25,754 nt of DNA from the IMG/VR virus record IMGVR_UViG_2778261588_000001; one strand, given 5' to 3'. Shown one piece after another: positions 1 through 17,022 of the stretch. The notes under the pieces are model-generated. The model searched no databases and was not told where the DNA came from. It worked only from the letters and a program-made list of their open reading frames with translations. A program made the position numbers and the translations under genes. The DNA is from a virus. Taxonomy: Duplodnaviria; Heunggongvirae; Uroviricota; Caudoviricetes. How positions within the stretch are numbered: position 1 is the stretch's first letter; every line of letters begins with the position of its first letter.

Positions 1-1284
1 TTACAGACTTCTGGAAGGTTGCGCAGCTCTTACAACACGCGGTTGATCTTCCGCAGCGTCTTCCAGCGCACTTAAATCACGGTCTTTCACTTCTGGCATT
101 TTCAGCGCAGAGATTAAACCAATCACTGAATATGCCATGATCATAATGGCGATCGGATACCAGGATTCCGTCATGGTGCAGAAAATACCCGCCAGGATAG
201 GACCAAAACCGGAAGCGATAAGACCACCAATTTCTTTAGAAATGGCCATCCGGGTAAAGCGGTTTTTACAGCCGAACATTTCTGCCATGGTAATGTTTTC
301 CAGAGCAAATAATCCCAGCACCGCACAGTTATGAATCACAATCAGTGCAACCATAATGGTGCTCGGGGCATAGCTTTTATCTACAATGATAGAAAGCATT
401 GGCCATGCCAGCACAATCGCGGAGGTATTCATAATAATATACGGGATCCGGCGACCAATTTTATCGGATAACCAACCAAGGAACGGAATGGTCATAAAGC
501 CGAGAATCGAACTAATCATCAATGCATCTGTTGGAATTGCTTTGTTAAACAATAACGTCTGCACTAAATAGCCTGCAAGGAAAGTCTGAATTAACCCGGA
601 GTTACCCGCCTGACCAAAACGCAGCCCTGTTGCCAGCCAGAAGGATTTGCTCTGGAACATGCTACCAGCAGGTGCAGGTTTTGCTGTGGGTTGGTTGCTG
701 TCATTAACCTTCTCAAAGACCGGGCTTTCTTTCAGATTCATACGTAACCAGATAGCAAAGACCATCACGACAACGCTCGCCAGGAACGGTATACGCCATC
801 CCCACGCCAGCAGTTCCTCTTTACTGAGAATGAAGAACATAAAGGCCCAGATTGCCGTTGCGCTCAAGGTTCCGCAGTTAGTTCCCATAGCTACAAATGA
901 GGAGATAATTCCGCGCTTACCTTTTGGTGCATATTCCGCCAGCATCGTACCGGCACCGGAAATTTCCGCACCTGCACCCAACCCCTGAATAATACGCAGC
1001 GTCACCAGCAAGATGGGGGCAAAAACACCAATCTGTGCATAGGTCGGTAACACACCAATTAAGGTGGTACAGATCCCCATCATGGTGATGGTAATAAAGA
1101 GCACTTTTTTACGCCCTATTCTGTCGCCCATTTTGCCGAAAATAAATGCTCCGACAATACGCGCCACATAACCTGCACCGTAGGTTCCCATTGCCAAAAT
1201 TAACGCCATTGCCGTTGATGATTCAGGAAAAAATATTTCATGAAACACCAACGCTGCGCCGAGCGAATATAACTGGAAATCCAT
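1..1284 (-). CDS. ydfJ: MFS transporter, YdfJ-like (427 aa), possibly lacking its ancestral N-terminus
   Basis: Complete ORF with the MFS loop motif GKMGDRIGRKK; recalled as the E. coli YdfJ sequence. Only about 19 residues precede the first loop and an in-frame stop lies 6 codons upstream of the ATG. Confidence 0.8.
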   Translation of the reverse strand: MDFQLYSLGAALVFHEIFFPESSTAMALILAMGTYGAGYVARIVGAFIFGKMGDRIGRKKVLFITITMMGICTTLIGVLPTYAQIGVFAPILLVTLRIIQGLGAGAEISGAGTMLAEYAPKGKRGIISSFVAMGTNCGTLSATAIWAFMFFILSKEELLAWGWRIPFLASVVVMVFAIWLRMNLKESPVFEKVNDSNQPTAKPAPAGSMFQSKSFWLATGLRFGQAGNSGLIQTFLAGYLVQTLLFNKAIPTDALMISSILGFMTIPFLGWLSDKIGRRIPYIIMNTSAIVLAWPMLSIIVDKSYAPSTIMVALIVIHNCAVLGLFALENITMAEMFGCKNRFTRMAISKEIGGLIASGFGPILAGIFCTMTESWYPIAIMIMAYSVIGLISALKMPEVKDRDLSALEDAAEDQPRVVRAAQPSRSL

Positions 1285-1523
1285 AATTCACAGATGTTTT
1301 TTCTCATTCTGTGGTTTCCTTGGCGCTTTCTAGGTTTTTTCAGATAGTTACATTTTTTCAAAAGCATCCTGAGTTCGATCTTACTATCTATCTGTGGCCT
1401 ATTTCTGTCCCATATATGCCCCAAAAAACACCCCAACAGATAAGCAATCTTTTCATGGTGTTACGCGTAAAAACAATAACGGCTTGAAATTATTCAATAC
1501 ACTCTCGAAAGTGCATCAGCCAA

Positions 1524-1557
1524 CCGCAGAACGTTATTGCATACAACGTTTCTGCGG
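1524..1557. repeat. Imperfect inverted repeat CCGCAGAACGTT-N9-AACGTTTCTGCGG upstream of the ydfJ-like gene
   Basis: Read directly from the sequence; 12/13 bp arms with a 9-nt spacer, no T-run after it. Confidence 0.4.
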
Positions 1558-2000
1558 CATATCACGAAACGATTACTTAATGACTGGGACTTCAGACCAC
1601 TCAATATCCGGTACAATTATGTATCAACGCAGTTTAACAACACCCTATATTTAATCCAGAGTGCGAGCAACGTTGTCCCTTTCTCTTTTGCACTCTTAAA
1701 ATATACGATTACTTAAGTGAAGATGCTTGACGAATCGCCAAATAAAACATCTTCATCAGCATAAAAATCCATATATGATTGAAAATTTAGTCATTAATAC
1801 CATTCATATCTGAATACTAACCTAATACGCTTACTAACCGTGAGAAATCTTTTTTTTCGACTTAATCACTCGAAATAAACTTTCACTCAATTGAAAACAA
1901 TTAGCTACAATTATCATTGCAATATCAAATCAAACATAACAACTTGCATAAATTCTCATGGGATACAGCATCAGTTGTGCCAAACACATAAGGAATTGAA

Positions 2001-2198
2001 ATGGACGGAGAAAGCTTTAACTTTGATGACAATGATATTGAATTTATTGCTTCAATGTATGCATCATGTAAATTATCAGGAAGTATCGCCCCCATAATGC
2101 ATATAATGGTTAGCATTCCAAAAAATAAGAAAAAACAATTCTACGAACGAGTTGAGCATTATTGTAGTTTATATTCCAATAAAAACCCACCTTCTTAA
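2001..2198 (+). CDS. Hypothetical small protein (65 aa) in the AT-rich terminal region
   Basis: ORF preceded by AAGGA 6 nt upstream of the ATG; AT-rich codon usage; no recognised homology. Confidence 0.35.
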   Translation: MDGESFNFDDNDIEFIASMYASCKLSGSIAPIMHIMVSIPKNKKKQFYERVEHYCSLYSNKNPPS

Positions 2199-2329
2199 AT
2201 TCGCTGCATTCTAGTGGATTCCATTAAGAAAACAATGACATACACTCAAACACATCTTTTTTATCAACAGTGAATTTCAGTTCGGCCAGTTTTTACCAGC
2301 TATTATAAAAATAGCACCCATATAAAGTT

Positions 2330-2428
2330 TTTACCCCACAGGTACAGCTGGCCATTCGATAACCGCACTAAGGAAGTGCCAACACGACATCAGCAAGACC
2401 CGATATTTCTTCCATGCCGCCAGCAACG
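2330..2428 (-). pseudogene. Tail fibre assembly gene 3' remnant
   Basis: Minus-strand translation ...[13 protein letters not shown]...IEWPAVPVG* parallels the C-terminus of the intact tfa at 3019..3600 (...[16 protein letters not shown]...IEWPVAPIG*); nucleotide similarity visible; no upstream ORF. Confidence 0.6.
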
Positions 2429-2902
2429 ATGTTAAGGTTAAATTAATTATAAAAAAATATATTATAATTCCATCTTCGCATTAAATTTTAACCTTTAATC
2501 TCCACACGGAACAAGTTGCATAGGTGACTATATTAAGAAAACTTATAACCACCAAAAAGATTTGCTTTGCAAGCAAAAACAGTGACCATTGACTCTAAGA
2601 AAATTCCGATCTATTGTTAGTGTCATCAAAGTTACTTAACAGTATTCCGAAATGAAAATACAAAGCAAGCTAATTGTCTTATTAAACATTATCATTGCAT
2701 TTATATTATTTGAGCTTTTAGCTCAAAAATTTGGTTTGAGTACATTATTTTAAAGCAAGATAAACAATATCGGGCACTCTAGTTTTTATAATTAACAATT
2801 AAACGCCCATAAAATGTTATTTACTTTTCTTCGCTATTGTCATATCTTAATAGAGTGGCTTACGCCACTCTACTTTCATCATATTTTGTACGTTTATGTA
2901 CT

Positions 2903-2932
2903 CGCCATGAAGCTCTTTCATGGCGATTTTTT
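2903..2932 (+). terminator. Rho-independent terminator-like hairpin on the plus strand with no upstream gene
   Basis: Perfect 9-bp stem CGCCATGAA / TTCATGGCG, 5-nt loop, then A-TTTTTT. A second perfect hairpin TAGAGTGGC-ttac-GCCACTCTA lies at 2851..2872. Confidence 0.5.
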
Positions 2933-3018
2933 ATTCTTAATCCAAGAACATACTCCCTACCTATAGAAAAATCACTTTTTGAACAAAAGAATAACGTATT
3001 TAGGTAATCATTACGAAT

Positions 3019-3600
3019 TTACCCTATAGGTGCTACTGGCCATTCAATATCCGGTGCAGTTGTTGTATTAACACGGTTCAGCAACACCCGATACTTCTTC
3101 CAGGCTTCCAGCAACGAGATTTCTTCCTCCGTTGCAATTTCCAGATCTGCAGCATCCTGAAGCGGCGCAATATGCTCACTGGCTACCTGCATCAGGTTGT
3201 TTTTTGTTTCTTCCGCCTCCCGGATCCGGAACAGTTTTTCTGCTTCCGTATCCTTCACCCAGGCTGTGCCGTTCCACTTCTGATATTCCCCTTCCGGCGA
3301 TAACCAGGTGACATTTTCCGGTAACGAGCCAAGTTCAGAAATAAATAACGCGTCGCCGGAAGCCACGTCATAGACGGTTTTTCCCCGATGATCTTCAACG
3401 AGATGCCACGATGCCTCATCACTGTTGAAAACAGCCACAAAGCCAGCCGGAATATCTGGCGGTGCAATATCGGTACTGTTTGCTGGCAGACCTGTATGAG
3501 GCGGAATATATGCGTCACCTTCACCAATAAATTCATTAGTTCCGGCCAGCAGATTATAAATTTTTATGGTCCGTGGTTGTTCACTCATTCTGAATGCCAT
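3019..3600 (-). CDS. tfa: Tail fibre assembly protein (Tfa family, 193 aa)
   Basis: N-terminus [51 protein letters not shown] is characteristic of lambdoid Tfa proteins; start overlaps the stop of the upstream stf remnant (TAATG). Confidence 0.85.
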
Positions 3601-3746
3601 TATGCAAGCCTCACAATATAGTTAAATGCGATGTTTTTGACGGTGTTTTCCGCGTTACCAGCAGCGTTAACGGTGATGGTGTGTCCATGTGAACCAATCG
3701 CAACGGAGTGCGTATGAGCACCAATAATCGCGGTTACTCTGTTCAT
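3600..3746 (-). pseudogene. Side tail fibre gene, last 48 codons only
   Basis: Minus-strand translation [48 protein letters not shown] matches the conserved Stf C-terminus. Its first codon overlaps the endolysin stop (ATGA) and its stop overlaps the tfa start. Confidence 0.65.
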
Positions 3747-4060
3747 TGCTGACCCCACAAACAGATTTCACGCTCAATCTCACGACGAGTCATGAGACCT
3801 TTCCATTGCTTACCGCCAGCATATGTCCAGCGACGTAGCTGATCACATGCGCCTTTGATATCGCCCTGGTTTATTTTGCGAAGAAGCGTCGATGTTCTGA
3901 AATTGCCAGCACCCACGTTGTAAACGAATGAGTAAAGAGCGCCGCGCATTGTTTCCGGTATATCGACTTTGATGTACGGGTTAATTTGTCTGGCGACCGT
4001 GGCAAGGTCTTTATTCAGGAGGGCTTTGCATTCTGCTTTGGTATACGTTTTACCGAGCAT
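3743..4060 (-). pseudogene. Endolysin (P22/RrrD-type lysozyme), C-terminal two-thirds only
   Basis: The 105-aa [40 protein letters not shown]... corresponds to roughly residues 61-165 of RrrD-type SAR endolysins as I recall them. Codons for TGKDI precede the ATG in frame, then a stop. The N-terminal SAR segment and catalytic region are absent. Confidence 0.65.
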
Positions 4061-4229
4061 GATGTCTTTTCCTGTACGTCAGCAGGCCAAATACCAGGCT
4101 ACCCAGCACACCTATTGCTGCCCACTGTGAGGGCGTGACTTTATCGAGCAGCTGTAAAAACCAGTAGCCAGCACTGCCTGCGGAGGTGCCGTAGGCAATG
4201 CCTGTTGAAATTTTGTCCATGGATTTCAT
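4050..4229 (-). CDS. Pinholin (phage 21 S-like) with replaced C-terminal tail, 59 aa
   Basis: [26 protein letters not shown]...[17 protein letters not shown] matches the S21/EssD pinholin family as recalled, then diverges into RKRHHAR* read out of frame from lysozyme DNA. Strong SD GGAGGTGA 5 nt upstream of the ATG at 4229. Confidence 0.6.
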
Positions 4230-4330
4230 AGCCTCACCTCCGCACGGAACGGATGGCATAGTTATTATGTGTAGGCTTTCAGACACATCAATCAGAGCCT
4301 TAATTGATATATATGCTGGAGACGATGCAA

Positions 4331-4355
4331 TATAAAAAGCTCGCCATAGCGAGCT
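4331..4355 (-). terminator. Rho-independent terminator downstream of the lipoprotein pair
   Basis: Minus strand: perfect 7-bp stem AGCTCGC / GCGAGCT with a 4-nt loop, followed by TTTTTAT. Confidence 0.5.
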
Positions 4356-4480
4356 AATAAAATGTATTTCTCTGATATTATGTTTATTTGTATTAGCTCA
4401 GACTTGACATCACAGGTTTCGTATATAGAACATCATCAAATCTGTCAGTTTGCTATGAATGAGATATAGTAATTGAAGAG

Positions 4481-4876
4481 CTAACCTCGCATGTCAAAGC
4501 CAGATTTCTGAAAATCTCTGTAGACTTCCGGATTGTTGAAGGCCGGAAATTTGGCTTTATGAGCTGCGGACTTTATCGCTTCGCAATAGGCTTTATCACC
4601 GTTACTGGTAGATATTTTTAACGCCGTGCCATCCTGAGAGAATTCCATATGCAACCTGCATTTTTTCCCTTTCCAGTTATGCGGCTCATCAAGTTTGGCA
4701 TTAATTGCAGCTCTGATTCCCCGCGCTTGCGCCCCCCATTCATCCTGATCATCCCAGCGTCCTGAACTGCAACTACCTGTAGCAGTAGTTTTGTGGCAAT
4801 CTGAAGGGTGTAAAGGTGTGCATCCCGCAACAAAACCGACCCAAAAAGTCAACATAACGATTTTCTTTAATCCCAC
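4481..4876 (-). CDS. Lipoprotein with divergent TolA domain III-like C-terminal domain (131 aa)
   Basis: GTG start with SD GAGGAG at 6-nt spacing; signal peptide with lipobox VAGC; C-terminus ...KGKKCRLHMEFSQDGTALKISTSNGDKAYCEAIKSAAHKAKFPAFNNPEVYRDFQKSGFDMRG is paralogous to the adjacent 142-aa lipoprotein and resembles the TolA C-terminus. Confidence 0.7.
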   Translation of the reverse strand: MGLKKIVMLTFWVGFVAGCTPLHPSDCHKTTATGSCSSGRWDDQDEWGAQARGIRAAINAKLDEPHNWKGKKCRLHMEFSQDGTALKISTSNGDKAYCEAIKSAAHKAKFPAFNNPEVYRDFQKSGFDMRG

Positions 4877-5026
4877 TTCTTGCTCCTCAATCCATTAAAA
4901 TCTCAGCAATAGTAGTTGTTACGTCCGCCACTGGCTCAGAGCTGACTATCCGCTAAATTTAGCTCAGTGCCGTAGCTGTGTCAGAACAAACCTAAGCCGA
5001 AACCGTTTATTACAAAACAATAAATA

Positions 5027-5455
5027 TCAGGGTTTAAAATCCAGCACCCCATTTTGAAATACTTTATATACTTCCGGCGAAGGGGGGGCAGGTATATCAG
5101 CATTCTTTATCGCATTCATCGCTTCACGACATAAATCGAGGTCTCCACTTTCTCTTTTAACCTCCAGTAGAAGGCCATTCGGGGCCATATGCATTCTCAG
5201 TGTACACTCTTTTCCTGAATACTTACTCGCATCCCCGAACTGTTTTTCGATGGCGCTCTTGATTTGATGGGCATACAGACGGATATTCTCACTAACATCA
5301 GAAGTACGTTCAGATGAACTCACATACTGTGTCTCTATTGCTTTATCGGAGTAATATGATGTACGGTCATGATAATTTGTCGATACAGCATCAGTGCACC
5401 CGATAATAATCCCACTAATAATCAACGTAAGAATTGATGCGCTACGAAAACCCAT
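5027..5455 (-). CDS. Lipoprotein with TolA domain III-like C-terminal domain (142 aa)
   Basis: ATG with SD GAGGA; signal peptide with lipobox IIGC; C-terminal 85 residues YAHQIKSAIEKQFGDASKYSGKECTLRMHMAPNGLLLEVKRESGDLDLCREAMNAIKNADIPAPPSPEVYKVFQNGVLDFKP resemble the E. coli TolA C-terminus as recalled (...YAGQIKSAIESKFYDASSYAGKTCTLRIKLAPDGMLLDIKPEGGDPALCQAALAAAKLAKIPKPPSQAVYEVFKNAPLDFKP). Confidence 0.75.
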   Translation of the reverse strand: MGFRSASILTLIISGIIIGCTDAVSTNYHDRTSYYSDKAIETQYVSSSERTSDVSENIRLYAHQIKSAIEKQFGDASKYSGKECTLRMHMAPNGLLLEVKRESGDLDLCREAMNAIKNADIPAPPSPEVYKVFQNGVLDFKP

Positions 5456-5572
5456 TTTTCCTCACATATGTCATATAGTAAAGGATTATATATACCGTTG
5501 TTTTGGACGCTCAAACAGCGAATCAGATCAAATAAAACGCACATTTGTTAACATTTACACAAAGTCTGCGTG

Positions 5573-5593
5573 GGATATTCTGAAAGAATATCC
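5573..5593. promoter_or_regulatory. Perfect 21-bp palindrome GGATATTCT-gaa-AGAATATCC about 120 bp upstream of the 142-aa lipoprotein gene; candidate operator
   Basis: Read directly from the sequence: 9-bp perfect inverted arms with a 3-bp spacer in an AT-rich promoter-like region. Confidence 0.4.
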
Positions 5594-5988
5594 ATAATGT
5601 GGAGAGAATCTATTGAAGTGCATGGTGCCGGGTGCCTCCCGGTGAATTCAGTACCAGCACCTGAATCCGCGATTATCCCATATACCTACTCGCTGATTGC
5701 CCCTCCGCACAGGGGGATTCACCATGCCAGTTTCTTTTAACAAACTCCCCGCAAACCAGAGAACAGTCAACCGCCTGAATTGTGAAGTATTTAAAAATTT
5801 CTCCCGCTAACTGATACCCGGCTAACAGTCTGGCGTTTTCTTTTTCAGCAACGGGAAAGCAACAACCACCACACCCGCCACCAGCACACCGTCAGCCAGC
5901 ACTGACATTATCCGGCTGCTGCAATGCCATTCACAAAAACAGTAAGCAATCACTTTTTACCGTAACAGGTGATAATCCAGATATGTAT

Positions 5989-6342
5989 CTACCCCAGATG
6001 AGTAATCCGAAGTTCATCCATACCACAGGTCCTGGCTATTCTGTTGTACTCCTGAACAAGAGCAAATAATTCTGAATTAGCAACCATGAACTCATCGCAA
6101 ACCCTCTGTATAGCATCACTATTCAGAAGAATAACGTCTCTTCCCGAAAGACGATCAGGAGTACAGAACAAAACTGTCAAACGGCTGAAGGCCTTTGCTC
6201 GTGCTGCATTGACTATATCAATACGCTGCCTAAGGATGAAACACCCCGACGCCTCATCAATATTCACTCTACCCACACCATATGAATGATAAATATTTAA
6301 TGCTGAAAAAACCATTAGACCGTATAACAAACACTCAATCAA
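5989..6342 (-). CDS. Hypothetical protein (108-117 aa) between the tRNAs and the lipoprotein pair; start uncertain
   Basis: ORF only. The first codon is TTG at 6342; an ATG at 6315 gives 108 aa; no convincing SD at either; no homology recognised. Confidence 0.4.
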   Translation of the reverse strand: MIECLLYGLMVFSALNIYHSYGVGRVNIDEASGCFILRQRIDIVNAARAKAFSRLTVLFCTPDRLSGRDVILLNSDAIQRVCDEFMVANSELFALVQEYNRIARTCGMDELRITHLG

Positions 6343-6452
6343 TACTTAACAGAACTTTTATTTTTGACAAACATATAATATTTTCAACAATATCCTGAGC
6401 CAGGTATATTCCAGTATAAGGCTCTGCCGGAAGGAATCTGGAAGAATGAATA

Positions 6453-6529
6453 TGGCGCGCTGTACTGGATTCGAACCAGTAACCGATTGCTTAGAAGGCA
6501 ATTGCTCTGTCCGGCTGAGCTAACAACGC
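6453..6529 (-). tRNA. tRNA-Arg (anticodon UCU), phage argN/argO-like
   Basis: 77-nt cloverleaf on the minus strand: acceptor GCGTTGT/ACAGCGC, T-arm ACTGG-TTCGAAT-CCAGT, anticodon loop CU-UCU-AA, encoded 3' CCA. Confidence 0.85.
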
Positions 6530-6634
6530 TGAATACCGATAATGGACCGCTATCGGGGACCCGCCCCCCCCCCGCACCAACAACCCTGTTATCGTGTCGT
6601 CTGCTCTTCCTGATAAGCTCATGGCGGTTTGTGA

Positions 6635-6710
6635 TGGTGGCCCTTGCTGGATTTGAACCAGCGACCTGGCGATTATGAGTCGCTCGCTCTCACCACTGAG
6701 CTAAAGGGCC
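6635..6710 (-). tRNA. tRNA with CAU anticodon, ileX/ileZ-like (tRNA-Ile2; elongator Met not excluded)
   Basis: 76-nt cloverleaf: acceptor GGCCCTT/AAGGGCC, T-arm GCTGG-TTCAAAT-CCAGC, anticodon loop CU-CAU-AA, discriminator A, encoded CCA; differs at only a few positions from E. coli ileX as recalled. Confidence 0.85.
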
Positions 6711-6853
6711 GGGAGCAGAATAATAACGGTCCGTAATTAATTCCGCAATAAAAAACCCGCTCGGCGGCGGGTTGTAGAAACTCTTCTAACGTCAGGCATA
6801 AAAAGCCCATCGTTATGATGAATTTACCACAGATTTCGGAAAAATCAACCTTG

Positions 6854-7675
6854 TTACCTAGTTACCTTTTTTAACTGCCGCTCAGCCCATCCTTCTTCAA
6901 TATCAAACCGGGTCACCAGCGCATCATAGAATTTCTTAACTGTTTTTTCCCATGACGCGCGTGTTATCTGGTTTGTCACCTCGCATATAGCATTAAATGC
7001 CTCCGTTGATGGTAGTCTTTCATAGCCACGACCACCACAACGCTGGCAGTCTCTGATAACAGGCATACCACGTTTTACCGACTCTTCACGGTGAATGGCG
7101 ACACCACGCCCACGGCAATCCTTACAGGCGGTGGAAACCTCACCCTTTCCGCCACACTCCGGACAGGCAACTTTTACCACCTCCCTGACTTTTTTCCATT
7201 CTTCCCAGTAAGACGGATACACACCTTTCGTACACTTTGCCCATACCGGCGGCTTACCATCCGGATACTGGACCTTGTTTGTAAAAACTACGCTTTCAAT
7301 AAATTTTTCCCCATAGCAACAAGGGCACTGCTTTTTACTCGCTGCGCTGCGGGCATAATCCTCAAAAGCGTACGAAGCCATAATGCGCATCACTACCGGT
7401 TTTATTTCTGCCGGAAGTTTTCTCAACGCCGCCACACGATCGCACCGACTGAGTGCATAATCTGCCAGTAATTCTGTTGCCCGCGCCCTGTCATTCATAC
7501 TGATGCCCATTTTCCCCAGGAACGCAGAAAACCCCATCTCAGCCCGATTCTGTGTCATGCCCTGCGCGGCCATCACATCAGTGATACTCAGCGCATCTTT
7601 TGACGTTGAGGCCGATGCATCGGTCAGGCAAGGGGATTTTGGGGAGTAGTATTTCGGTAAATCTTCCAGTTTCAT
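6854..7675 (-). CDS. quuQ: Late-gene antiterminator Q, QuuQ-like, with DnaJ-type zinc-finger repeats (273 aa)
   Basis: Three CxxCxGxG motifs (CPECGGKGE, CKDCRGRGV, CQRCGGRGY); overall similarity to Qin QuuQ as recalled; position immediately upstream of the phage tRNAs. Confidence 0.75.
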   Translation of the reverse strand: MKLEDLPKYYSPKSPCLTDASASTSKDALSITDVMAAQGMTQNRAEMGFSAFLGKMGISMNDRARATELLADYALSRCDRVAALRKLPAEIKPVVMRIMASYAFEDYARSAASKKQCPCCYGEKFIESVVFTNKVQYPDGKPPVWAKCTKGVYPSYWEEWKKVREVVKVACPECGGKGEVSTACKDCRGRGVAIHREESVKRGMPVIRDCQRCGGRGYERLPSTEAFNAICEVTNQITRASWEKTVKKFYDALVTRFDIEEGWAERQLKKVTR

Positions 7676-8049
7676 TTTTTGACCTGCTCTTCATGCATTA
7701 TGGGGTAAATCTTCACCCCCAGACGTCCACCAGATACTGGCTGACCACGAACGATATTGATTTCATCAAACTGCTCATCGTCCATTAACACTCCCGCATG
7801 CGTCAGCGCATCCAGCGGTGCTTTCAGGATATTGTCCAGGTCGCGACGACGCTTATCCGGTGGCTCTGCAATCACCTTTATCGCCAGCCTTCCGGACAGG
7901 CTTAATTTCAGCCGCTGCTGGCGAACAATAAGCGCCACAGCCCGGCGATAACGCTTTCCCTCCTCCGAGATAAAATATGTGCTGCCACGGCGTCGCCAGT
8001 AAGTGTTCACCGTCGGCGGGTAAGGTAAAACCAAATCTATGAGCATCAC
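7672..8049 (-). CDS. rusA: RusA-family Holliday junction resolvase (125 aa)
   Basis: Motifs PPTVNTYW and DKRRRDLDN match the RusA family; typical nin-region position upstream of Q. Confidence 0.85.
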   Translation of the reverse strand: MMLIDLVLPYPPTVNTYWRRRGSTYFISEEGKRYRRAVALIVRQQRLKLSLSGRLAIKVIAEPPDKRRRDLDNILKAPLDALTHAGVLMDDEQFDEINIVRGQPVSGGRLGVKIYPIMHEEQVKK

Positions 8050-8058
8050 TCACCTCTT

Positions 8059-9108
8059 TTACCCAAGCACGCCAGTTGCAAAGGCGTGATCAAGAAAACG
8101 AAAAATTAAATCAACCTGAGAACCATGCTTTTCTTCGAACGCCAGAGGATCCGCATGAAGCTCGTTGTGATGCTCCCGACACAGCGGTAGCGTGAAAATA
8201 TCGTGAGATTTTGTCCCCATTCCGCCCTGACCATGACCAATCAGGTGATGGGGATCGTCGGCTGGCTTACCACAATACGCACACGGCTGTGTCTTCACCC
8301 AGCGTGTGTATTTCTCGTTAACCCAGCGGCGACGTTTAGGTCGTTTCATGAAAGATTCCGGAGACTCAGGATCAACGGCAATGCTGACCACCGTCTTTTC
8401 CTGTGGTGGGTTCTGTTGCTGGTGGGCGTGAGGCAGCGGCGCAAGATTTTTTGTGCGCTGTTTCAGTATGCTGGTGGCGGTCTGCTCTCCCGGTACGATG
8501 TCGCTTTCACGGTACATTGAGCGGATTTTTTCCGCACGCAACCCCAGCGAACGACGTAATACCGCTTCCGGTAGCGCGTCCGCCACCTGATTGCGGACCG
8601 CCCACCAGGATAATTCAGCCAGCGATAATTCCCGCTCCTGTGTGCCATTCATTGCGTGACGAATGACGTCAATCATCCATGCTGACAAGTTTTGGTGAGC
8701 AAGTTGCTCAAGTGATTCGGAGGTCTGGTCACGCAACTGGTTGTCGCAGTGCCAGCACAACACCATTGCGCCGGTACCATAACGGTGAATGACGGTTTCG
8801 CTGTGATGATAATCGCCGTGTGGCCACTGGCAGGATTTAATATGGCGCAACAGCCAGTCAGACAATGCACCAGCACCACCAGCAGCACGAATCACCCGTG
8901 CGTTACTGAAAAACGGCAGCAATGTTTTGTCTTCCACCAGCGGCTGGCGAACGGCAGGAACGCCCCCGGACGGCAGATTACGCATGCTTTTCGGTTCCGG
9001 CTCCACCAGTACCCGGGTATTGTGGAATACCGGCATGGATTCACGGCCCGGCTTAACGATCACCAGCCCGAGTTCCGGTACCAGAACAGGTCGAAGTAAT
9101 ACTCGCAC
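8059..9108 (-). CDS. ydfU: DUF968 protein, YdfU-like (349 aa)
   Basis: Length and sequence recalled as the Qin YdfU family; C-terminal Cys/His cluster CAYCGKPADDPHHLIGHGQGG...CREHHNELH. Confidence 0.75.
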   Translation of the reverse strand: MRVLLRPVLVPELGLVIVKPGRESMPVFHNTRVLVEPEPKSMRNLPSGGVPAVRQPLVEDKTLLPFFSNARVIRAAGGAGALSDWLLRHIKSCQWPHGDYHHSETVIHRYGTGAMVLCWHCDNQLRDQTSESLEQLAHQNLSAWMIDVIRHAMNGTQERELSLAELSWWAVRNQVADALPEAVLRRSLGLRAEKIRSMYRESDIVPGEQTATSILKQRTKNLAPLPHAHQQQNPPQEKTVVSIAVDPESPESFMKRPKRRRWVNEKYTRWVKTQPCAYCGKPADDPHHLIGHGQGGMGTKSHDIFTLPLCREHHNELHADPLAFEEKHGSQVDLIFRFLDHAFATGVLG

Positions 9109-9109
9109 G

Positions 9110-9388
9110 TTACCTCCAGATGCGTTGCTGGAATGTGCGGGACGGACGCGGTGATCGTTCGGAGTAAGGAAGCCTGACGGAGATTATCCAGTGACGATAA
9201 TCGAGGCTGAGGGCTTTCTTAATCTCGTATCCGTGTCTGCGGTAGCACTGAATTAGCCACTCGGCCTGTTCTTCAGTGCATGGGGGATGCTGGAACCAGT
9301 CAGATTTGAAAGTGCGGGAACGCCGCCCGTGCCTGCTGGCAAAGACGGCAGAATCATCAGAATTGTGTAATTTGGTATCGTGCGCCAT
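9110..9388 (-). CDS. Hypothetical phage protein (92 aa from the ATG at 9388)
   Basis: ORF only. The longer 135-aa version would start at a GTG upstream of the hok terminator, so the ATG at 9388 is preferred. No homology recognised. Confidence 0.4.
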   Translation of the reverse strand: MAHDTKLHNSDDSAVFASRHGRRSRTFKSDWFQHPPCTEEQAEWLIQCYRRHGYEIKKALSLDYRHWIISVRLPYSERSPRPSRTFQQRIWR

Positions 9389-9460
9389 CGGTTGTCTCTG
9401 CTGGCGCAGCAGGTGCCAGTTGTTCAGGCTGGCGTGCGAATTGTAAACCAGAATGCCAGG

Positions 9461-9487
9461 AAAAAACAAAACCCGCCGAAGCGGGTT
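9461..9487 (-). terminator. Rho-independent terminator after hok
   Basis: Minus strand: stem AACCCGC / GCGGGTT with loop TTCG, followed by TTGTTTTTT. Confidence 0.55.
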
Positions 9488-9555
9488 ACGTGCGGGTGCG
9501 TTGAGGATGCCTGACACATCAGAGGTGGCGAGGGATTTCTCCCTCGCCGGGTCTC

Positions 9556-9711
9556 TTACTCCTCAGGTTCGTAAACTGTGAAGACAGCGACCTCCGTCTG
9601 GCCGGTTCGGATTCGTACCTCGCAGAGGTCTTTCCTCGTTACCAGTGCCGTCACTATGACGGTTAAACAGATGACGATCAGGGCGATTAACATCGCCTTT
9701 TGCTGCTTCAT
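9556..9711 (-). CDS. hokD: Hok-family type I toxin (51 aa), HokD/RelF-like
   Basis: MKQQKAMLIALIVICLTVIVTALVTRKDLCEVRIRTGQTEVAVFTVYEPEE is near-identical to E. coli HokD as recalled. An in-frame 19-codon upstream extension exists but the internal ATG gives the canonical length. Confidence 0.85.
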   Translation of the reverse strand: MKQQKAMLIALIVICLTVIVTALVTRKDLCEVRIRTGQTEVAVFTVYEPEE

Positions 9712-10431
9712 AGCCTGCTTCTCCTTGCCTTTCGGCACGTAAGAGGCTAACCTAGATTTGCCGTTCATAGATTGAGCCTCAGATTAATGTTAAGCGTCTT
9801 GCAGGACGCGTAATGTTAACTGGGGCTTTTCTCTATCTGCCTTTGGTGTTCATGCCTGAGGCAGATAGCCTCAAGCACCCGCAGCAATTCTACTTAACTC
9901 CCGTCACCTCGCCAATATAAAATCAATCAGAAAGGCGATCCATAAGAACAACAGCAAGACAATAAATTGCCATTACAGCCGCAATAGCTAGCGCACATTT
10001 GAGAACCAGCACGACAACCTCCTGTATTGGACGTACACCAGTTCTGATAAATATGAGGCTGTCTCATCATTGATTCAATATAACTATTGGGTATAGTTTC
10101 TGTGATTTTGTTCTGTAGAAATGGAACACAACAACCAGTCACCACCAGCACTTCTTTAAATACGCCAAGTCCGACGCAAGCTAACCTTCTAGTCCGCTTT
10201 GAGCGAGGAGCGGACCAAACCCGGCCAACTGACTCTTAAAGGGGCCGCAGGAATTTTTCGTCTGAACTTTCGAAGCTCCTCTCCCTGAAGACAGAAAACT
10301 TCTGTGTGCTGTGGGAATATTGAATCTTTGCATTAGATATAAATAATTTTATCCCGCCTGAAGTTTACATTATTTTATTTATCTGTTTTTCTAAATCAGA
10401 CTGCACTCCTTACTTAAATCAGGAGCCAGTC

Positions 10432-11631
10432 ATGCCATTTGTTATTTATGTGTTTACTATCAGTGCCTTTGCGCTCGGACTCGCGGAATTTGTCCCCATT
10501 GGGCTGACAGACGTTATGGCTCAGGGGTTGTGTGTGGGTGTGGAGCAGACCGGGGCAGCGGTTACAACCTATGCACTGGGGGCAACGTTCGCGGCACCCG
10601 TACTGTCTGCGCTGACAGCAAGCTGGAGCCGGAAAAATGTAATGCTTACAACTGCCGTTGTGTTTACTGCCGGTAGTCTGGCGGCCGCGTTTGCAGCCAC
10701 ATTACCTCAGCTCCTGTTAGCGCGGTTCATTGCTGGTCTGGGACACGGCCTGTTTCTGGCTGCGGCATCCAGTACCGCAGCTCGTCTTGCTGGACCGGGT
10801 AAAGCAGGCAGAGCGGTGGCTGTGGTATTTGGTGGCTTTACTCTGGCGATGGCAATCGGCGTACCGCTGAGTACATGGTTGGGGGGGGTGGTCTCATGGC
10901 GTCCAGTTCTCGGCGCTATTGCCGCTTTTGGCGCGTTCGGATTCCTTGGACTGTTGTTCGGTATGAAAGATCCCGTACGCAGCGTGCCCGGTGAACATAG
11001 TGACTCAGCAATGCAGAATATCGGCATGCTGTTTAACCGTAAGTTGCTGGCCGGCGCGCTGGTTACGGTGCTGGCGTATGCAGGCTCGTTTACGGCTTAC
11101 ACCTTTATCGCACCTATTCTGACGCAGGTGACAGGGGTTACCGGAGCAACGGTGAGTCTGTTTATGCTGGTTTACGGTATTACAGCTGCGGTAGGTAATA
11201 TTCTTGGTGGGAAACTTACCGACAGCATGGGGGTTAATCGTGCCAATATACTCATCATTAGCGGCATTGTTGTTGTCGTGCTTGGTATGTGGCTGCTGTC
11301 ATCCTCACCGGTGAGCATGGGCATTCTGGTTGCGCTGCTGGGTATGGTGACATTTGCCGCAGTGCCGGCACTGCAGGCCCGTCTGATTGGTGTCGCTGAG
11401 CAACATGCTCCTCATGCGCATGGTGTTGCTGCCGGCCTGAATATTGCGGGCTTCAACTCAGGTATAGCGCTGGGATCAGTACTGGGCAGCATTACTATAA
11501 GCCACGCCGGTATCGTGTATACCGGTATCAGCGGTGCGATTGTTTCTCTGCTCGGCCTGCTGTTGCTGCTTGCACAAATCCGTCGCAGCCACAGTCGTAA
11601 ATTTCAACAGGTTAAAATCGTAGGCCAGTAA
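10432..11631 (+). CDS. MFS transporter (399 aa, 12-TM type), cargo
   Basis: Long hydrophobic ORF with Gly/Ala-rich helices; SD AGGAG upstream; visibly higher GC than flanking phage DNA. Confidence 0.85.
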   Translation: MPFVIYVFTISAFALGLAEFVPIGLTDVMAQGLCVGVEQTGAAVTTYALGATFAAPVLSALTASWSRKNVMLTTAVVFTAGSLAAAFAATLPQLLLARFIAGLGHGLFLAAASSTAARLAGPGKAGRAVAVVFGGFTLAMAIGVPLSTWLGGVVSWRPVLGAIAAFGAFGFLGLLFGMKDPVRSVPGEHSDSAMQNIGMLFNRKLLAGALVTVLAYAGSFTAYTFIAPILTQVTGVTGATVSLFMLVYGITAAVGNILGGKLTDSMGVNRANILIISGIVVVVLGMWLLSSSPVSMGILVALLGMVTFAAVPALQARLIGVAEQHAPHAHGVAAGLNIAGFNSGIALGSVLGSITISHAGIVYTGISGAIVSLLGLLLLLAQIRRSHSRKFQQVKIVGQ

Positions 11632-11642
11632 AGGGAGGTTAT

Positions 11643-12335
11643 ATGCTTACCCGTGAAAATATGCTTAATGGCACATTTGTCAGGGTGCATGAAGCGCTGC
11701 TCCCGGCGAATATGCTCTGGGACGCTGAAAAAATACGCGCATCAATGAACTCTACTCTGGAGGAGCGCCCGACGGGTGCTCCTTTCTGGATATTTGCCTA
11801 CGGGTCATTGATGTGGAATCCCGTGCTGGCAATTGAAGAAATGCAACGGGCCCGTCTGAAAGGATGGCAGCGCAGTTTCTGCATTCGTTTGATATCCGGA
11901 CGAGCGACTCCTGATGTCCCCGGCAGGATGTTATCGCTCGACGAAGGTGGAATTACCGAAGGTATTGCGTTCAGACTGCCGGAATCGACTCTTATTAATG
12001 AGCTGGAAATTGTCTGGACGCGCGAGATGATAACCGGTCTTTACCGTCCGGTCTGGGCAGACGTTTCGCTAGGAAACGGTGAGGAAATTCAGGCGCTGGC
12101 TTTCGTATCAGACAGACTGCATCCGCATTATGAACAGGACAATCTTACAGCGACCGTAGCGTTGAGCATCGCATCTGCCCGTGGAGACATTGGCACGAAT
12201 GCAGATTATGTATGGAAACTGCAGGCCACTCTGGGTGCGTTGGGAATACGGGATGATTACGTGAGTGAACTGGCCCTTGCTCTGCATGAGGCTCCCTGTA
12301 ACGATAAACTTCATCAGCGAGGCGCTTCACTATGA
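11643..12335 (+). CDS. ChaC-family gamma-glutamylcyclotransferase-like protein (230 aa)
   Basis: Motif FWIFAYGSLMWNP and downstream GRMLSLDEGG...LWTREMITG pattern typical of ChaC; SD AAGGGAGG upstream. Confidence 0.8.
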   Translation: MLTRENMLNGTFVRVHEALLPANMLWDAEKIRASMNSTLEERPTGAPFWIFAYGSLMWNPVLAIEEMQRARLKGWQRSFCIRLISGRATPDVPGRMLSLDEGGITEGIAFRLPESTLINELEIVWTREMITGLYRPVWADVSLGNGEEIQALAFVSDRLHPHYEQDNLTATVALSIASARGDIGTNADYVWKLQATLGALGIRDDYVSELALALHEAPCNDKLHQRGASL

Positions 12336-13213
12336 GCCATCTGAGCCATCTGCGAACGTTTCTTGAGGCCTATCGCTCTGGCTCCTTTTCAAAGGCGGCA
12401 GAACTACTGGGCATCACTCAGCCCGCGGCGTCACAGCATATCCAGTCTCTTGAGACTCTGGTTGGTAAGCGTCTGTTTATCAGGCAGGCCAGAGGCGTGA
12501 CGGCAACCGAAGCTGCGGATGAGCTTGCCCGCTCAGTTTCACCCTTCATTGATGGTCTGGAAGAAAAGCTGTCCTCTTTCCGGTCAGGCTCTGTACACGG
12601 GGGAACAATTAATCTGGCAGGACCGCCAGATTTTATTCATTCCCGGCTTGGGACAGTAATGGCTCCACTAATGAAGGAGGGGTATCGCCTACGCTTTCAT
12701 ACCGGCAATAAGCAACGTATTTATTCCCTTTTGCATGACGGGAGCGCCGATCTCGCTGTTACCGCATCTATGCCTGATGACCGTCTGTACGGCTATGCAC
12801 ATCTACTGACTGAACGCATGCTCCTTGTTCATGCTCCCGCCATGTCAGAGATCATCGGATCAGAACCTGGTGCTGAAACGCTTGCCTCATTACCGCTGAT
12901 TGCTTATGACGAAGAGTTGCCACTGATTAGAGCGCTCTGGGCCTCCATGTTTCAGAGAGCCCCTGAGATGCAGGCTACATTCACCATTCCGGATTTACGT
13001 ATTATCCGCGACTTGGTCTGTGACGGCCACGGGTGGACAGTGCTGCCGGATTATCACTGTGACAATGACCTGAAAAGTGGTCGCCTGATTTCAGTGACAC
13101 CTGCAGACCTCGCTCCGACTAATCATCTTTATCTGGTCTGGAACAAAAGGACGGCTAATAACAGCCGAACCGCCTATGTTCGGGATTACATTCTTAAAAC
13201 GTTTCCGCGTTGA
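12332..13213 (+). CDS. LysR-family transcriptional regulator (293 aa)
   Basis: N-terminal HTH LRTFLEAYRSGSFSKAAELLGITQPAASQHIQSLE; start overlaps the ChaC-like stop. Confidence 0.85.
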   Translation: MSHLSHLRTFLEAYRSGSFSKAAELLGITQPAASQHIQSLETLVGKRLFIRQARGVTATEAADELARSVSPFIDGLEEKLSSFRSGSVHGGTINLAGPPDFIHSRLGTVMAPLMKEGYRLRFHTGNKQRIYSLLHDGSADLAVTASMPDDRLYGYAHLLTERMLLVHAPAMSEIIGSEPGAETLASLPLIAYDEELPLIRALWASMFQRAPEMQATFTIPDLRIIRDLVCDGHGWTVLPDYHCDNDLKSGRLISVTPADLAPTNHLYLVWNKRTANNSRTAYVRDYILKTFPR

Positions 13214-13257
13214 TGTTTGAAACGGATGATTGGCGATGCGTATCATAAGTTACGTAT

Positions 13258-13281
13258 GTCCGCTTCTGGCACAAAGCAGAC
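13258..13281. repeat. Hairpin repeat copy A: GTCCGCTT-ctggcaca-AAGCAGAC
   Basis: Read directly; shares a 16-nt core (15/16 identical) with copy B at 16931..16954; lies between the convergent LysR and membrane-protein genes. Confidence 0.45.
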
Positions 13282-13343
13282 GCCCACTCTCACGCGAATG
13301 CTTTGCCCTTGACTTGCCAACAACCGTATCGCTTGCTCCGCAA

Positions 13344-14636
13344 CTATGGTTTTTTATTAGAACCTTCGCCACTAAATAAATTATAATAAATTGATTTTAT
13401 TAGATATCTGTCAGAATCTATATGGTCAGCACGAGTAGCATGCTCTAATGTTTCAAATGCTAGGGTTTGTGCGGCTTCAGCAAAAATTCCAGGCCAACCC
13501 TTACTCAGCATCGACAGTCCTTTAAGTACCCTTATCTGAATTTCCCTCATACTGGCACCATCGCGCGCAACAGGTGAGAAAAAGTCTTCAAGTAGATCGT
13601 TATTCTGAAGTGGTGCAACATGTACAGAAGGATATTTCACTTCTATTTCATCAGATTTATTCTGCGCGTAAGCGGAAAGTATACGTACACCTCTGCCAAT
13701 GACATCAATGGCGGTTCCAGGATCGTTCACTGCGGGGGAAAGGGCTCGGCAGGCTATTTCGGCCATGACGCTAAGACAAAATCGGGGGTCCTGAGCAAAT
13801 GAACGTACATCCGAGACAATAATCGTCTCAAGTAAATCGGTGCTGATTGATGACTCCTGGCCCTGACTCAGGTACAAAACTGGCGTGGACGGATGTATGA
13901 AACTGCCCGGCTGCGCCACGAGGTATACATGACGGGGATCATTGGTCAGCAGCTTGCTGAGTTTCACCATATCAACATATTCAACATAGCCAATCTTTTT
14001 CGGATAAACTGCAACCGTTCCTTTCGGCTGTTCATTGTTCTCAAGCCAAGGATATCCGCCGAGACAGGGATTTCTTGCTCTCGCAATAAATGTTTCGATG
14101 GCCGCCTGTTCTACTTTTGCCGTTGTCTCACCAACCCTCCCCAGAGAGGTCAAATGCTGTATCCAGCGAAGCAATGTGATGAGGATTAAGGCAATGACAA
14201 CCAGTGTTACAATGAATAAAATGACTCTCCCCCTTTCTCCATAAGCTCCCATATTGAGGGCAATAATCCCTACCAGACTGAAGAGAAAAGAACCGATGAA
14301 GGTGGCCAGTACATTTTGTGTGGTGACGTCTTCAACAACTAAACGAGTAGCTCTGGGAGTCACATTAGTAGTGGCTGAACCGTAGGCTGTGACCATGATG
14401 CTCAGCGAAAATGTGGTCACTGCCAGCATACTCGATGCCAGTATGTTCAGAATGTTATCGACTGCTTCCGCACCAACCTTCACGGAAACCGACTCAGGTA
14501 TCATTGATTTAAAAAGAATTGATAAAAGGGCCGTTATTATTGCGACAATTGCGAATAACGTTGCCCTGAACCATAGTTTTTTAAATGTCTGCTTCAGCAT
14601 CCATTTCCAGCGTGAAATCATTCTGCATTCCCTCAT
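13344..14636 (-). CDS. Predicted membrane protein (430 aa), DUF2254-like
   Basis: N-terminal transmembrane segments followed by a soluble C-terminal domain; family assignment from memory and uncertain. Confidence 0.65.
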   Translation of the reverse strand: MRECRMISRWKWMLKQTFKKLWFRATLFAIVAIITALLSILFKSMIPESVSVKVGAEAVDNILNILASSMLAVTTFSLSIMVTAYGSATTNVTPRATRLVVEDVTTQNVLATFIGSFLFSLVGIIALNMGAYGERGRVILFIVTLVVIALILITLLRWIQHLTSLGRVGETTAKVEQAAIETFIARARNPCLGGYPWLENNEQPKGTVAVYPKKIGYVEYVDMVKLSKLLTNDPRHVYLVAQPGSFIHPSTPVLYLSQGQESSISTDLLETIIVSDVRSFAQDPRFCLSVMAEIACRALSPAVNDPGTAIDVIGRGVRILSAYAQNKSDEIEVKYPSVHVAPLQNNDLLEDFFSPVARDGASMREIQIRVLKGLSMLSKGWPGIFAEAAQTLAFETLEHATRADHIDSDRYLIKSIYYNLFSGEGSNKKP

Positions 14637-14684
14637 ATTGCAGCCGGGATAAATAAATGCCGCCTCTGTGGCGGCATGTTGCTG

Positions 14685-16688
14685 TTAACGAACCAGATGC
14701 AGGAAGTGCAGGTGTTTTTCGTACTGGTCCAGTATGTCATTAATCAGCTGTTCCTGATTCCAGCCCATTACATCATAATTTTGGCCGCCCTCTTTGAGAT
14801 AGACTTCAGCGCGATAATATCGATGTTGTTCACTCTGCTGCTCATCATTATCCAGCGCAGCGAGCGCGAAGGTCGGTGAGTTATACCCGCGAAGCCTCAC
14901 TTCATATATATAATTCAGCTCGTTGCCCAAATCGACTTCAAGGCGAATACGATCCTCGGCGGCGTCACTGATGTGGCTTATCGTTCCCTGCTTGTTAAGT
15001 TCCTCCTGAACCAGCGTCATGGCGGGTTGGATAATGTCGTCCATAAAACGTTTCACAAGAGAGCGCTTCGGCAAATACGCGATATTGCGTAACCTTCTCT
15101 GCCAGGGAATTGGGTTACGTGCAGCCGTAGGAGCAATAGTCGCCATGCTAAGGCTTTCACGCTTGGTCAAATCCCGACGCAGGGCTTTTAACAGTCCGTA
15201 TATGGATATTAATAAGATAACTGAGAAGGGCAATGCACTCGCTATCGTTACGGTTTGCAACGCACTCAGCCCCCCTGCGATCAGCAGGGCAATAGCAACA
15301 ACGCCCATGAGCGATGCCCAGAAAATTCGCTGCCAGACGGGCGTGTTTGCCACCCCACCTGATGCCAGAGTATCCACAACCATTGCCCCCGAATCAGCAG
15401 ACGTTACAAAGAAGACGATGACCATCGCCATTGCAATGAATGACAGCACGGAAGAGAACGGGAAATGCTCCAGGAAATTAAACAGGGCAAGCGCAACATC
15501 CTGCTGAACGGTATTGGCGAGGTCAGTGGCGCCCTGGTTCATGATGAGATAGATGGCGCTGTTTCCAAACACCGTCATCCACATGAGCGTAAAGCCGGCG
15601 GGAACAAACAACACGCCAGTCACGAACTCACGAATTGTCCTGCCGCGGGAAACGCGTGCAATGAACATACCTACAAACGGCGACCATGAAAGCCACCATC
15701 CCCAGTATAATAATGTCCAGCCCCCCAGCCAGTTGCTCGACTTGGGTTCATACGCGTAAAGGTTGAACGTTTTACTCACCAGTTCCGACAGATAACCACC
15801 CGTATTTTCCACAAATGACTTCAGCAGAAGCACAGTGGGACCCAGGCACAAGACCAGCGCCAGGAGCAACACCGCCAGGCCCAGATTAAGCTCAGACAGG
15901 ATGCGTATTCCCTTGTCCAGGCCGGACACCACCGAAATCGTCGCTAACCCCGTGATGACCACGATCAAAATGACCTGTACCGTTTCATTGATGGGCACGC
16001 CGAAAAGATGGTTCAAACCGGCATTCACCTGCAATACACCGTAACCCAGTGATGTTGCAACGCCAAAGACAGTGCCTATCACGGCGAAGATATCAACCGC
16101 GTGGCCTATAGGCCCGTAAATGCGATCGCCGATAATGGGATAGAGCGCAGAACGCAGCGTTAAAGGCAGACCGTGACGGTAACTGAAAAAGGCCAGAATC
16201 AGCGCCACGATGGCATAAATTGCCCATGCGTGCAGACCCCAGTGGAAGAACGTCAGGCGCATGGCTTCCTTCGCTGCCGCAACGGTCTCTGGAGTGCCGA
16301 CAGGTGGCGAAAGATAATGCATCACAGGTTCGGCAACGCCAAAGAACATCAGGCCGATCCCCATCCCTGCCGAAAAAAGCATCGCGAACCAGGAGTGGTA
16401 GCTGAAATCAGGCTGCGCATGGTCTGGGCCCAGCTTTATATCACCGTAACGTGAGAGTCCAAGGAACGTGACGCTCAGTAAAATCAGGGCCACAGCAAGT
16501 ATGTAGAACCAGCTGGCATTCGTGAAGATTTGTTGCTGAAGTAGTTTAAAATTTTTGTCGGCGACATCCGGGAATACGGCGGCAAAGGCGACAAGAAGGA
16601 AAATTAGCAAAGCAGATGTAAAGAATACCGCTTTGTTAATCTGGCTTGTAGACTTCTTTGGGGTTGTATCATTTTCACTCATAATCAT
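14685..16688 (-). CDS. BCCT-family transporter, BetT-like (667 aa)
   Basis: Length and N-terminal pattern (...GDIKLGPDHAQPDFSYHSWFAMLFSAGMGIGLMFFGVAEPVMHY) parallel E. coli BetT as recalled; long C-terminal cytoplasmic tail. Confidence 0.85.
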   Translation of the reverse strand: MIMSENDTTPKKSTSQINKAVFFTSALLIFLLVAFAAVFPDVADKNFKLLQQQIFTNASWFYILAVALILLSVTFLGLSRYGDIKLGPDHAQPDFSYHSWFAMLFSAGMGIGLMFFGVAEPVMHYLSPPVGTPETVAAAKEAMRLTFFHWGLHAWAIYAIVALILAFFSYRHGLPLTLRSALYPIIGDRIYGPIGHAVDIFAVIGTVFGVATSLGYGVLQVNAGLNHLFGVPINETVQVILIVVITGLATISVVSGLDKGIRILSELNLGLAVLLLALVLCLGPTVLLLKSFVENTGGYLSELVSKTFNLYAYEPKSSNWLGGWTLLYWGWWLSWSPFVGMFIARVSRGRTIREFVTGVLFVPAGFTLMWMTVFGNSAIYLIMNQGATDLANTVQQDVALALFNFLEHFPFSSVLSFIAMAMVIVFFVTSADSGAMVVDTLASGGVANTPVWQRIFWASLMGVVAIALLIAGGLSALQTVTIASALPFSVILLISIYGLLKALRRDLTKRESLSMATIAPTAARNPIPWQRRLRNIAYLPKRSLVKRFMDDIIQPAMTLVQEELNKQGTISHISDAAEDRIRLEVDLGNELNYIYEVRLRGYNSPTFALAALDNDEQQSEQHRYYRAEVYLKEGGQNYDVMGWNQEQLINDILDQYEKHLHFLHLVR

Positions 16689-16930
16689 TTATTCCATTAA
16701 TTAAATCCGCACTGGATAGAAGGTACTACCTCTCACAGAGTAGCAAAGTTCAACTGGCTATGCGGGGTTAATCGGAATGCATGGTGGAATGAGTGCCGAT
16801 ACAAATCATCCTATATTCTAAGGAGTTTTAAGTTACTCAGCCTGCCAATTACTGGGGCATTTAATTTGTATGATCTGTATCAAAGCTGGGATATAAGTTA
16901 AGTGAAGTATATTAGGCACGAATTACCAGC

Positions 16931-16954
16931 GTCTGCTCTTGGCACAAAGCGGAC
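16931..16954. repeat. Hairpin repeat copy B: GTCTGCTC-ttggcaca-AAGCGGAC
   Basis: Read directly; matches copy A; lies between the BetT-like gene start and the upstream phage gene. Confidence 0.45.
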
Positions 16955-17022
16955 AACCACGCTAGCTCTACCCTGTGCCACAAAATGTCAATTTGCATCT
17001 GAACTAATGCACTTTAATCTCG

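Follow-up and report, generated by a model that had tools for sequence, protein, structure and literature searches.

Why should a prophage that has lost its terminase, head and tail genes still carry an intact gene for tail fibre assembly? The question is raised by a 25,754-nt stretch of viral DNA (IMG/VR record IMGVR_UViG_2778261588_000001; "the window" in what follows), in which such a gene, tfaQ, is joined by overlapping start and stop codons to a 48-codon open reading frame (ORF) and, through it, to a lysozyme gene. A first-pass annotation, made from the letters of the sequence, proposed that the whole morphogenesis module had been deleted and that the neatness of the remaining junctions might mean that tfa had been retained for a function. 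The first part of this proposal is borne out by comparison with relatives. The second is not: the locus very probably represents a pair of deletion scars in a grounded Qin-type prophage, the result of recent, ordinary decay, with tfaQ as a bystander.

The prophage and its setting

The ORF listing, Pfam and PHROG matches and the annotation of relatives identify the window as a Qin-type lambdoid prophage in the ydfJ gene of Escherichia coli. The features on which the argument turns are listed below; D1 and D2 are deletions relative to the prophage of E. coli strain 94EC, described in the next section.

1..1284, minus strand: ydfJ', the host MFS transporter gene without its N-terminus, at the attR-side prophage/chromosome junction; annotated as "missing N-terminus" at the equivalent position in F9792, 94EC and others
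1285..3018, minus strand: right arm of the prophage, A+T-rich (29-40% GC), with two decayed tfa 3'-end stubs; assigned from composition, the region being present also in the near-intact 94EC
3019..3600, minus strand: tfaQ, tail fibre assembly (chaperone) gene, intact, 193 aa; Pfam Caudo_TAP (PF02413), profile positions 1-130 of 131, E 3e-42
3600..3746, minus strand: chimeric 48-codon ORF, with residues 1-8 of RzpD in frame with residues 984-1023 of Stf, judged from its translation against the two proteins of 94EC
3724..3726: junction of deletion D1, 24,116 bp absent relative to 94EC; 3-nt microhomology ATA, common to both parental sequences
3743..4076, minus strand: 'rrrD, the 3' two-thirds of a phage-21-type lysozyme gene; only positions 32-125 of the 125-position Pfam Phage_lysozyme profile
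4050..4229, minus strand: essD', truncated phage-21-type (pin)holin gene, 52 of 71 native residues plus seven out of frame; Pfam Phage_holin_2_1 (PF04971), profile positions 1-48 of 64, and comparison with 94EC EssD
4074..4076: junction of deletion D2, 226 bp absent relative to 94EC; 3-nt microhomology GTA (rrrD side/essD side)
4338..4355, minus strand: putative terminator-like hairpin upstream of the holin gene (pattern scan), inside a segment 99.96% identical to 94EC
6754..6773, minus strand: terminator-like hairpin just 3' of Q (pattern scan)
6854..7675, minus strand: Q-type antitermination gene, intact, 273 aa; "antitermination protein" in relatives, with Pfam Antiterm listed for the identical gene
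24459-25754: int, at the far end of the prophage; PHROG 1, E 3e-77

From the int end, the gene order runs through an excisionase, a RecE-like exonuclease, DicF, repressor, Cro and CII-like genes, replication genes and a five-gene cargo block, followed by hok/sok, a DUF968/HNH gene, rusA, Q, two tRNAs, two genes with a TolA C-terminal domain, and the lysis and fibre remnants. This is the lambdoid order (immunity, replication, nin region with rusA, Q, lysis), as read from the ORFs, their PHROG and Pfam matches and annotation transferred from the 99.96%-identical 94EC prophage. No terminase, portal, capsid, head or tail gene is found between ydfJ' (1-1284) and int (24459-25754), and the element has no structural genes at any other place. 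The prophage is defective, or cryptic, in that neither cell lysis nor particle formation is predicted to be possible. The ydfJ site is empty in many strains; in strain 510016, for example, the empty site carries an intact 455-aa ydfJ.

The Q gene marks the head of a late transcription unit that still contains tfaQ. By analogy with lambdoid gene order, the hairpin just 3' of Q probably sits where the late terminator tR', which Q overrides, would be. Two tRNA genes lie 3' of Q (6453-6529 and 6635-6710, minus strand), one for Arg-TCT and one with a CAT anticodon, called Met by ARAGORN and Ile by RefSeq in relatives. The two genes with a TolA C-terminal (domain III-like) region (4481-4876 and 5027-5455, minus strand) occupy a moron position between Q and the tRNAs on one side and the holin gene on the other, and are preceded by a match to the Rfam family STnc100 (5566-5756, minus strand). 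Their products could serve as periplasmic TolA-III decoys that block Tol-dependent colicins or filamentous phages.

The cargo block (10432-16688), between hok/sok and the replication genes, encodes an MFS transporter, a gamma-glutamylcyclotransferase, a LysR regulator, a DUF2254 protein and a BCCT transporter; this non-phage block is also present in 94EC. The hok/sok toxin-antitoxin locus is at 9706-9880 (minus strand), with a hokD ORF at 9556-9768, and the DicF antisense RNA is at 20948-20999 (plus strand).

Two deletions and what they removed

E. coli 94EC (NZ_CP047576, at about 312-357 kb) carries a near-complete copy of the same prophage at the identical site. Its late region consists of Q, the tRNAs, the TolA-like genes, essD, rrrD, rzpD, iss, ylcI, the small and large terminase genes, portal, head and tail genes, J, lom, stf (1,023 aa), tfaQ and ydfJ'. 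The 94EC prophage is itself damaged, with internal stops annotated in its S49 prohead protease and exonuclease genes. In blastn alignments, the window falls into three segments:

window 1-3726: 99.87% identity to 94EC
window 3724-4076: 98.87% identity to 94EC
window 4074-23898: 99.96% identity to 94EC

Prophage-wide, the window diverges from 94EC by about 0.04%, and the retained DNA is 99.9% identical. The junctions were placed from the blastn end points and a base-by-base three-way comparison; comparison with an intact lambdoid relative, the check proposed in the first-pass annotation, thus mapped the end points to 3724-3726 (D1) and 4074-4076 (D2). Both deletions are private to the window allele when compared with 94EC. 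An IS element or a repeat was considered as the cause and rejected: neither junction has an IS or any repeat of more than 3 nt.

D1 begins at codon 8 of rzpD and stops 40 codons short of the stf stop codon. In 94EC, the 24,116-bp block that it removed holds the spanins, iss, ylcI, terminase, portal, head and tail genes, J, lom and most of stf, and the loss of the morphogenesis module is thereby confirmed. The claim that everything between R and the 3' end of stf had gone, Rz included, is correct for the terminase, portal, head and tail genes, but eight codons of Rz remain and supply the start of the 48-codon ORF.

This ORF runs on the minus strand from an ATG at 3746, which is the rzpD start codon, to a TAA at 3602..3600. 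A preceding ORF ends in a TGA at 3745..3743 that overlaps the ATG (3746..3744) as ATGA, read directly from the sequence (tcat on the plus strand), and the TAA shares one base with the tfaQ start codon (3600..3598) to give TAATG. The first-pass annotation had noted both overlaps, and its coordinates (3743-3746 and 3598-3602) agree with the sequence and the ORF listing. Both are also present, unchanged, in 94EC, where rrrD and rzpD overlap by 4 nt and stf and tfaQ by 1 nt. They are thus the inherited R/Rz and stf/tfa junctions and not products of deletion.

What had been taken for an stf remnant is one only in its last 40 codons; the first eight, encoding MNRVTAII, are those of Rz. Likewise, the junction described as precise and in phase does join Rz to stf in frame, but at 3724-3726, 20 nt inside the ORF, rather than at the ATGA. 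By this comparison, the sole novelty from D1 is the match of frames across the junction, which has a chance of about one in three. The 48-aa product matches only the final 44 positions of the PHROG 295 tail fibre profile (E 1e-25) and has no Pfam match. With codons 1-8 of the 153-codon rzpD left, it has neither the transmembrane anchor nor the periplasmic coiled-coil domain of an Rz/Rz1 spanin, and with the last 40 of 1,023 Stf residues, it has neither the N-terminal tail-attachment domain nor the shaft of a fibre. It probably has no function.

D2 took the 3' end of the holin gene together with the first 60 codons of the endolysin gene, and left holin codon 52 running out of frame into codon 55 of rrrD. 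The holin that remains falls short of the full-length, 71-aa S protein of the PF04971 family. The largest ORF left in rrrD starts at an internal methionine, Met61 (4060), and encodes 105 aa corresponding to residues 61-165 of the 165-aa RrrD, with T98M the one substitution relative to 94EC. The SAR export segment expected of such a PF00959 lysozyme lay within residues 1-60 and was removed by D2, and the PF00959 catalytic domain is incomplete, its N-terminal third missing. This third carries the catalytic glutamate, part of the E35/D44/T50 triad of R21. The rrrD remnant is therefore best described not as the endolysin of the first-pass annotation, which would have been intact, but as a predicted catalytically dead C-terminal stub made by D2, sitting behind a truncated holin gene.

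Four substitutions relative to 94EC and F9792, T98M among them, are clustered within 55 nt of the rrrD stub (3911-3965), between flanks that are 99.96% identical. All 353 nt of the stub recur without a difference at rrrD-rzpD junctions elsewhere, such as those of the prophages of Nissle 1917 and ATCC 11775. This pattern suggests a gene-conversion patch or a mosaic ancestor.

The anatomy of the locus points to the following course of events, and nothing found in the analysis contradicts that anatomy. The ancestor would have had a late operon of Q, the tRNAs, two TolA-like morons, essD, rrrD, rzpD/rzoD, iss/bor, terminase, head and tail genes, J, lom, stf and tfaQ. Two RecA-independent, illegitimate deletions at 3-nt microhomologies would then have grounded it. 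D1 would have deleted the spanins, iss and the packaging, head and tail genes, joining by chance the start of Rz to the tail of Stf in frame, and D2 would have destroyed the 3' end of the holin gene and the 5' end of the endolysin gene, so that the two together disabled all three lysis functions. In this reconstruction, D1 ended 127 nt upstream of tfaQ, and tfaQ would be intact because D1 stopped short of it and because there has been too little time for mutation. D1 may have struck an intact phage directly, in a single step, or may have come after a smaller deletion of the F9792 type; these two routes look alike because D1 swallows the F9792-type junction. Theory and surveys alike indicate that prophages without lysis and particle formation are favoured.

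The retention of tfaQ

The most serious alternative is that tfaQ and the fibre-tip stub have been domesticated, that is, kept by selection in grounded Qin-type prophages, either as a chaperone acting in trans on the fibres of other prophages or as a reservoir cassette for fibre-tip/chaperone recombination, with the in-frame join preserving translation. Some features of tfaQ would fit such a role. The gene is no pseudogene: it matches Caudo_TAP in full, and its nucleotides are 100% identical to those of the copies in 94EC and F9792 (WP_001593356.1). Its product, a chaperone by family membership, matches Mu TfaU (PDB 5YVQ) in its C-terminal region. As had been proposed, it is placed to be read from the late transcript, on the same strand as the intact Q gene and about 3.25 kb downstream of it. 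A Shine-Dalgarno sequence, GAGG, lies 8 nt before its ATG, inside the 3' end of stf. Expression of tfaQ after induction is thus plausible, though no more so than in any lambdoid phage.

Published work also lends the idea some weight. Among incomplete prophages, the genes lost preferentially are those for lysis, terminase and portal, and an over-representation of tail-fibre genes is statistically supported (PMC7744054); this pattern also counts in favour of the decay reading. Phage lambda recombines with the stf-tfa remnants of the K-12 Qin and Rac prophages at about 2e-6 per phage (PMC3945230). As general background, Tfa proteins have a modular build: the N-terminal domain varies and binds the fibre, and the C-terminal one is conserved and mediates trimerisation (PMC9608196). 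A literature search on cryptic-prophage stf/tfa genes and host range found nothing, and one for "tfaQ" gave almost only unrelated acronyms.

Against selection stands the lack of any time for it to act. Neither tfaQ nor the stf stub differs at any nucleotide from its counterpart in 94EC or F9792; at a background divergence of about 0.04%, an unchanged tfaQ is what would be expected whether the gene is useful or not, and its intactness is a sign of recency rather than of selection. Nor does the in-frame join matter to tfaQ, since the gene has its own ribosome-binding site and its translation is independent of the frame upstream; the join itself is a one-in-three event. A dN/dS-style comparison of five tfaQ alleles was tried and set aside: the differences numbered 0, 0, 3 and 12, with six synonymous and six nonsynonymous in the most divergent, and they reflect mosaic phage alleles, so that they say nothing on selection after the deletion.

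The other alleles at the site can be read both ways. The ydfJ locus, viewed in individual relatives and across about 60 complete genomes, shows further independent deletion alleles in F9792, B4103-1, GENOMIC23-002, WCHEC035123, Ec-RL2-1X and of the K-12 type, and the site is evidently a hotspot of independent decay. Several of these alleles join a lysis-region gene to a 5'-truncated stf, with 126, 555, 834 or 1,650 nt of stf left, and the survival of an intact tfaQ in several of them would speak for selection. The frames of the fusions look random, however: in B4103-1, lysozyme codons 1-36 are fused in frame to the last 277 residues of Stf, in GENOMIC23-002 the fusion is out of frame, and in F9792 there is none. 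Moreover, tfa is N-terminally truncated at the ydfJ site in WCHEC035123 and Ec-RL2-1X, and many strains do without a prophage there altogether. The sampled decayed alleles with the right arm seen here all end inside stf and spare tfaQ, in a sample biased to loci that contain tfaQ. The clustering of right end points in stf was considered as a sign of selection and rejected, since the queries had required tfaQ-proximal sequence.

The window allele itself is seldom met. A single assembly on record, GCA_002459785.1, has the exact 48-aa product; it is a draft, and its contig NJUI01000006.1 (313 kb; reported in two samples) matches the window at 100% identity over 9,746 nt and is presumably the source of it. 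Neither junction is present in 5,426 complete E. coli genomes, where 71-nt queries for each junction recovered just the undeleted state in two pieces or half-matches, and a 32-nt pattern for the D1 junction is absent from GTDB representative genomes and metagenome contigs. An allele private to one assembly, with no substitutions in tfaQ and with truncated tfa genes in other decayed alleles at the locus, argues against the suggestion that tfa was retained for a function, and domestication of tfaQ together with the fibre-tip stub is accordingly considered improbable. Taken by itself, the window neither supports nor opposes selective retention of tfaQ and is one more example of a documented pattern.

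This rarity might also be taken to mean that the deletions are not real, and that a short-read draft assembly produced the 24-kb and 226-bp gaps by collapse or misjoining: the sole assembly with the junctions is a draft, and no independent genome has them. Misassembly arises at repeats, however, and here the two sides share 3 nt only; the contig is long, collinear with the chromosome on both sides and reported in two samples, and analogous deletions at the locus are found in closed genomes, where they are real. An artefact is very unlikely. Least likely of all, and scarcely credible, is that the 48-aa Rz'::'Stf peptide works as a micro-protein in its own right, for instance as a fibre-tip decoy that titrates the Tfa chaperones of incoming phages or hinders fibre trimerisation: it has a native start codon with the Rz translation-initiation region, stays open to the native stf stop, keeps the His-x-His-rich fibre terminus and is annotated as a gene in the source, but it was born of a chance 3-nt microhomology deletion in a single lineage, its 40 Stf residues are the last 4% of a 1,023-aa trimeric fibre, and no homologous fusions exist elsewhere by which conservation could be shown.

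Two further observations concern the 3' end of tfa. This conserved stretch occurs three times in the same orientation, as decayed stubs at 1590-1673 and 2330-2429 and as the real end of tfaQ at 3018-3117; the copies were found as direct-repeat families D1, D2 and D4, which are names of repeats and not of the deletions. The stubs look like footprints of earlier replacements of the fibre/chaperone cassette by recombination in the conserved C-terminal coding region of tfa. A match to the Rfam family IS009 (RF02111; 225 bits, 3059-3257, minus strand) lies wholly within the 3' half of the tfaQ coding sequence, and it seems that this "sRNA" family and the conserved 3' region of tfa are the same stretch.

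Significance and comparison with known systems

With two deletion scars and a bystander tfaQ as the preferred reading, the locus matters little except for its annotation. The 48-codon ORF and the supposed "endolysin" and "holin" are pseudogene fragments, and the element is due for annotation as a lysis- and morphogenesis-defective Qin-type prophage. The kind of event is already known. What the window does offer is a clean case of prophage grounding, resolved to the base, with a near-intact relative for comparison and the loss of both killing and particle functions. It also adds one allele to a decay hotspot at which the selective retention of fibre-chaperone genes could be tested population-wide.

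The lysis genes belong to the type of cassette found in phage 21 and DLP12 (S21 pinholin, R21 SAR endolysin and Rz/Rz1; essD-rrrD-rzpD-rzoD), with which they share protein families, gene order and the native ATGA overlap. Unlike these, the window has a holin without its last 19 residues, an endolysin without residues 1-60 and an Rz of eight codons, and Rz1 lies in the deleted part of rzpD. Judged from what is left of its genes, this lysis cassette cannot work.

The fibre end resembles the stf-tfa module of lambda and the Mu-type Tfa (PDB 5YVQ) in its full Caudo_TAP protein, the C-terminal region held in common with Mu TfaU and the native one-base overlap of stf and tfa. It differs in that the fibre is cut to its last 40 residues and the element encodes no tail.

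The 94EC prophage shares with the window an identical tfaQ, the cargo island, the region of Q, tRNAs and TolA-like morons, and the attachment site. It differs in keeping 24.1 kb more (rzpD, iss, ylcI, terminase, portal, head and tail genes, J, lom and a full stf), as well as intact essD and rrrD.

The classic counterpart is the Qin prophage of K-12 (ydfJ'-ydfK-pinQ-tfaQ-stfQ'-nohA ... quuQ ... intQ). Qin is likewise inserted in ydfJ, carries DicF and hok/sok, and has a lambdoid Q and lysis cassette; its morphogenesis genes have been lost, and what follows the cassette is an stf truncated at its 5' end, with tfaQ intact. In Qin, however, the right arm includes ydfK and the pinQ invertase gene, and the deletion joins nohA to stf. 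The window has no pin gene; instead, it carries a five-gene cargo island, its lysis genes are destroyed, and 40 codons of stf are fused to eight codons of Rz.
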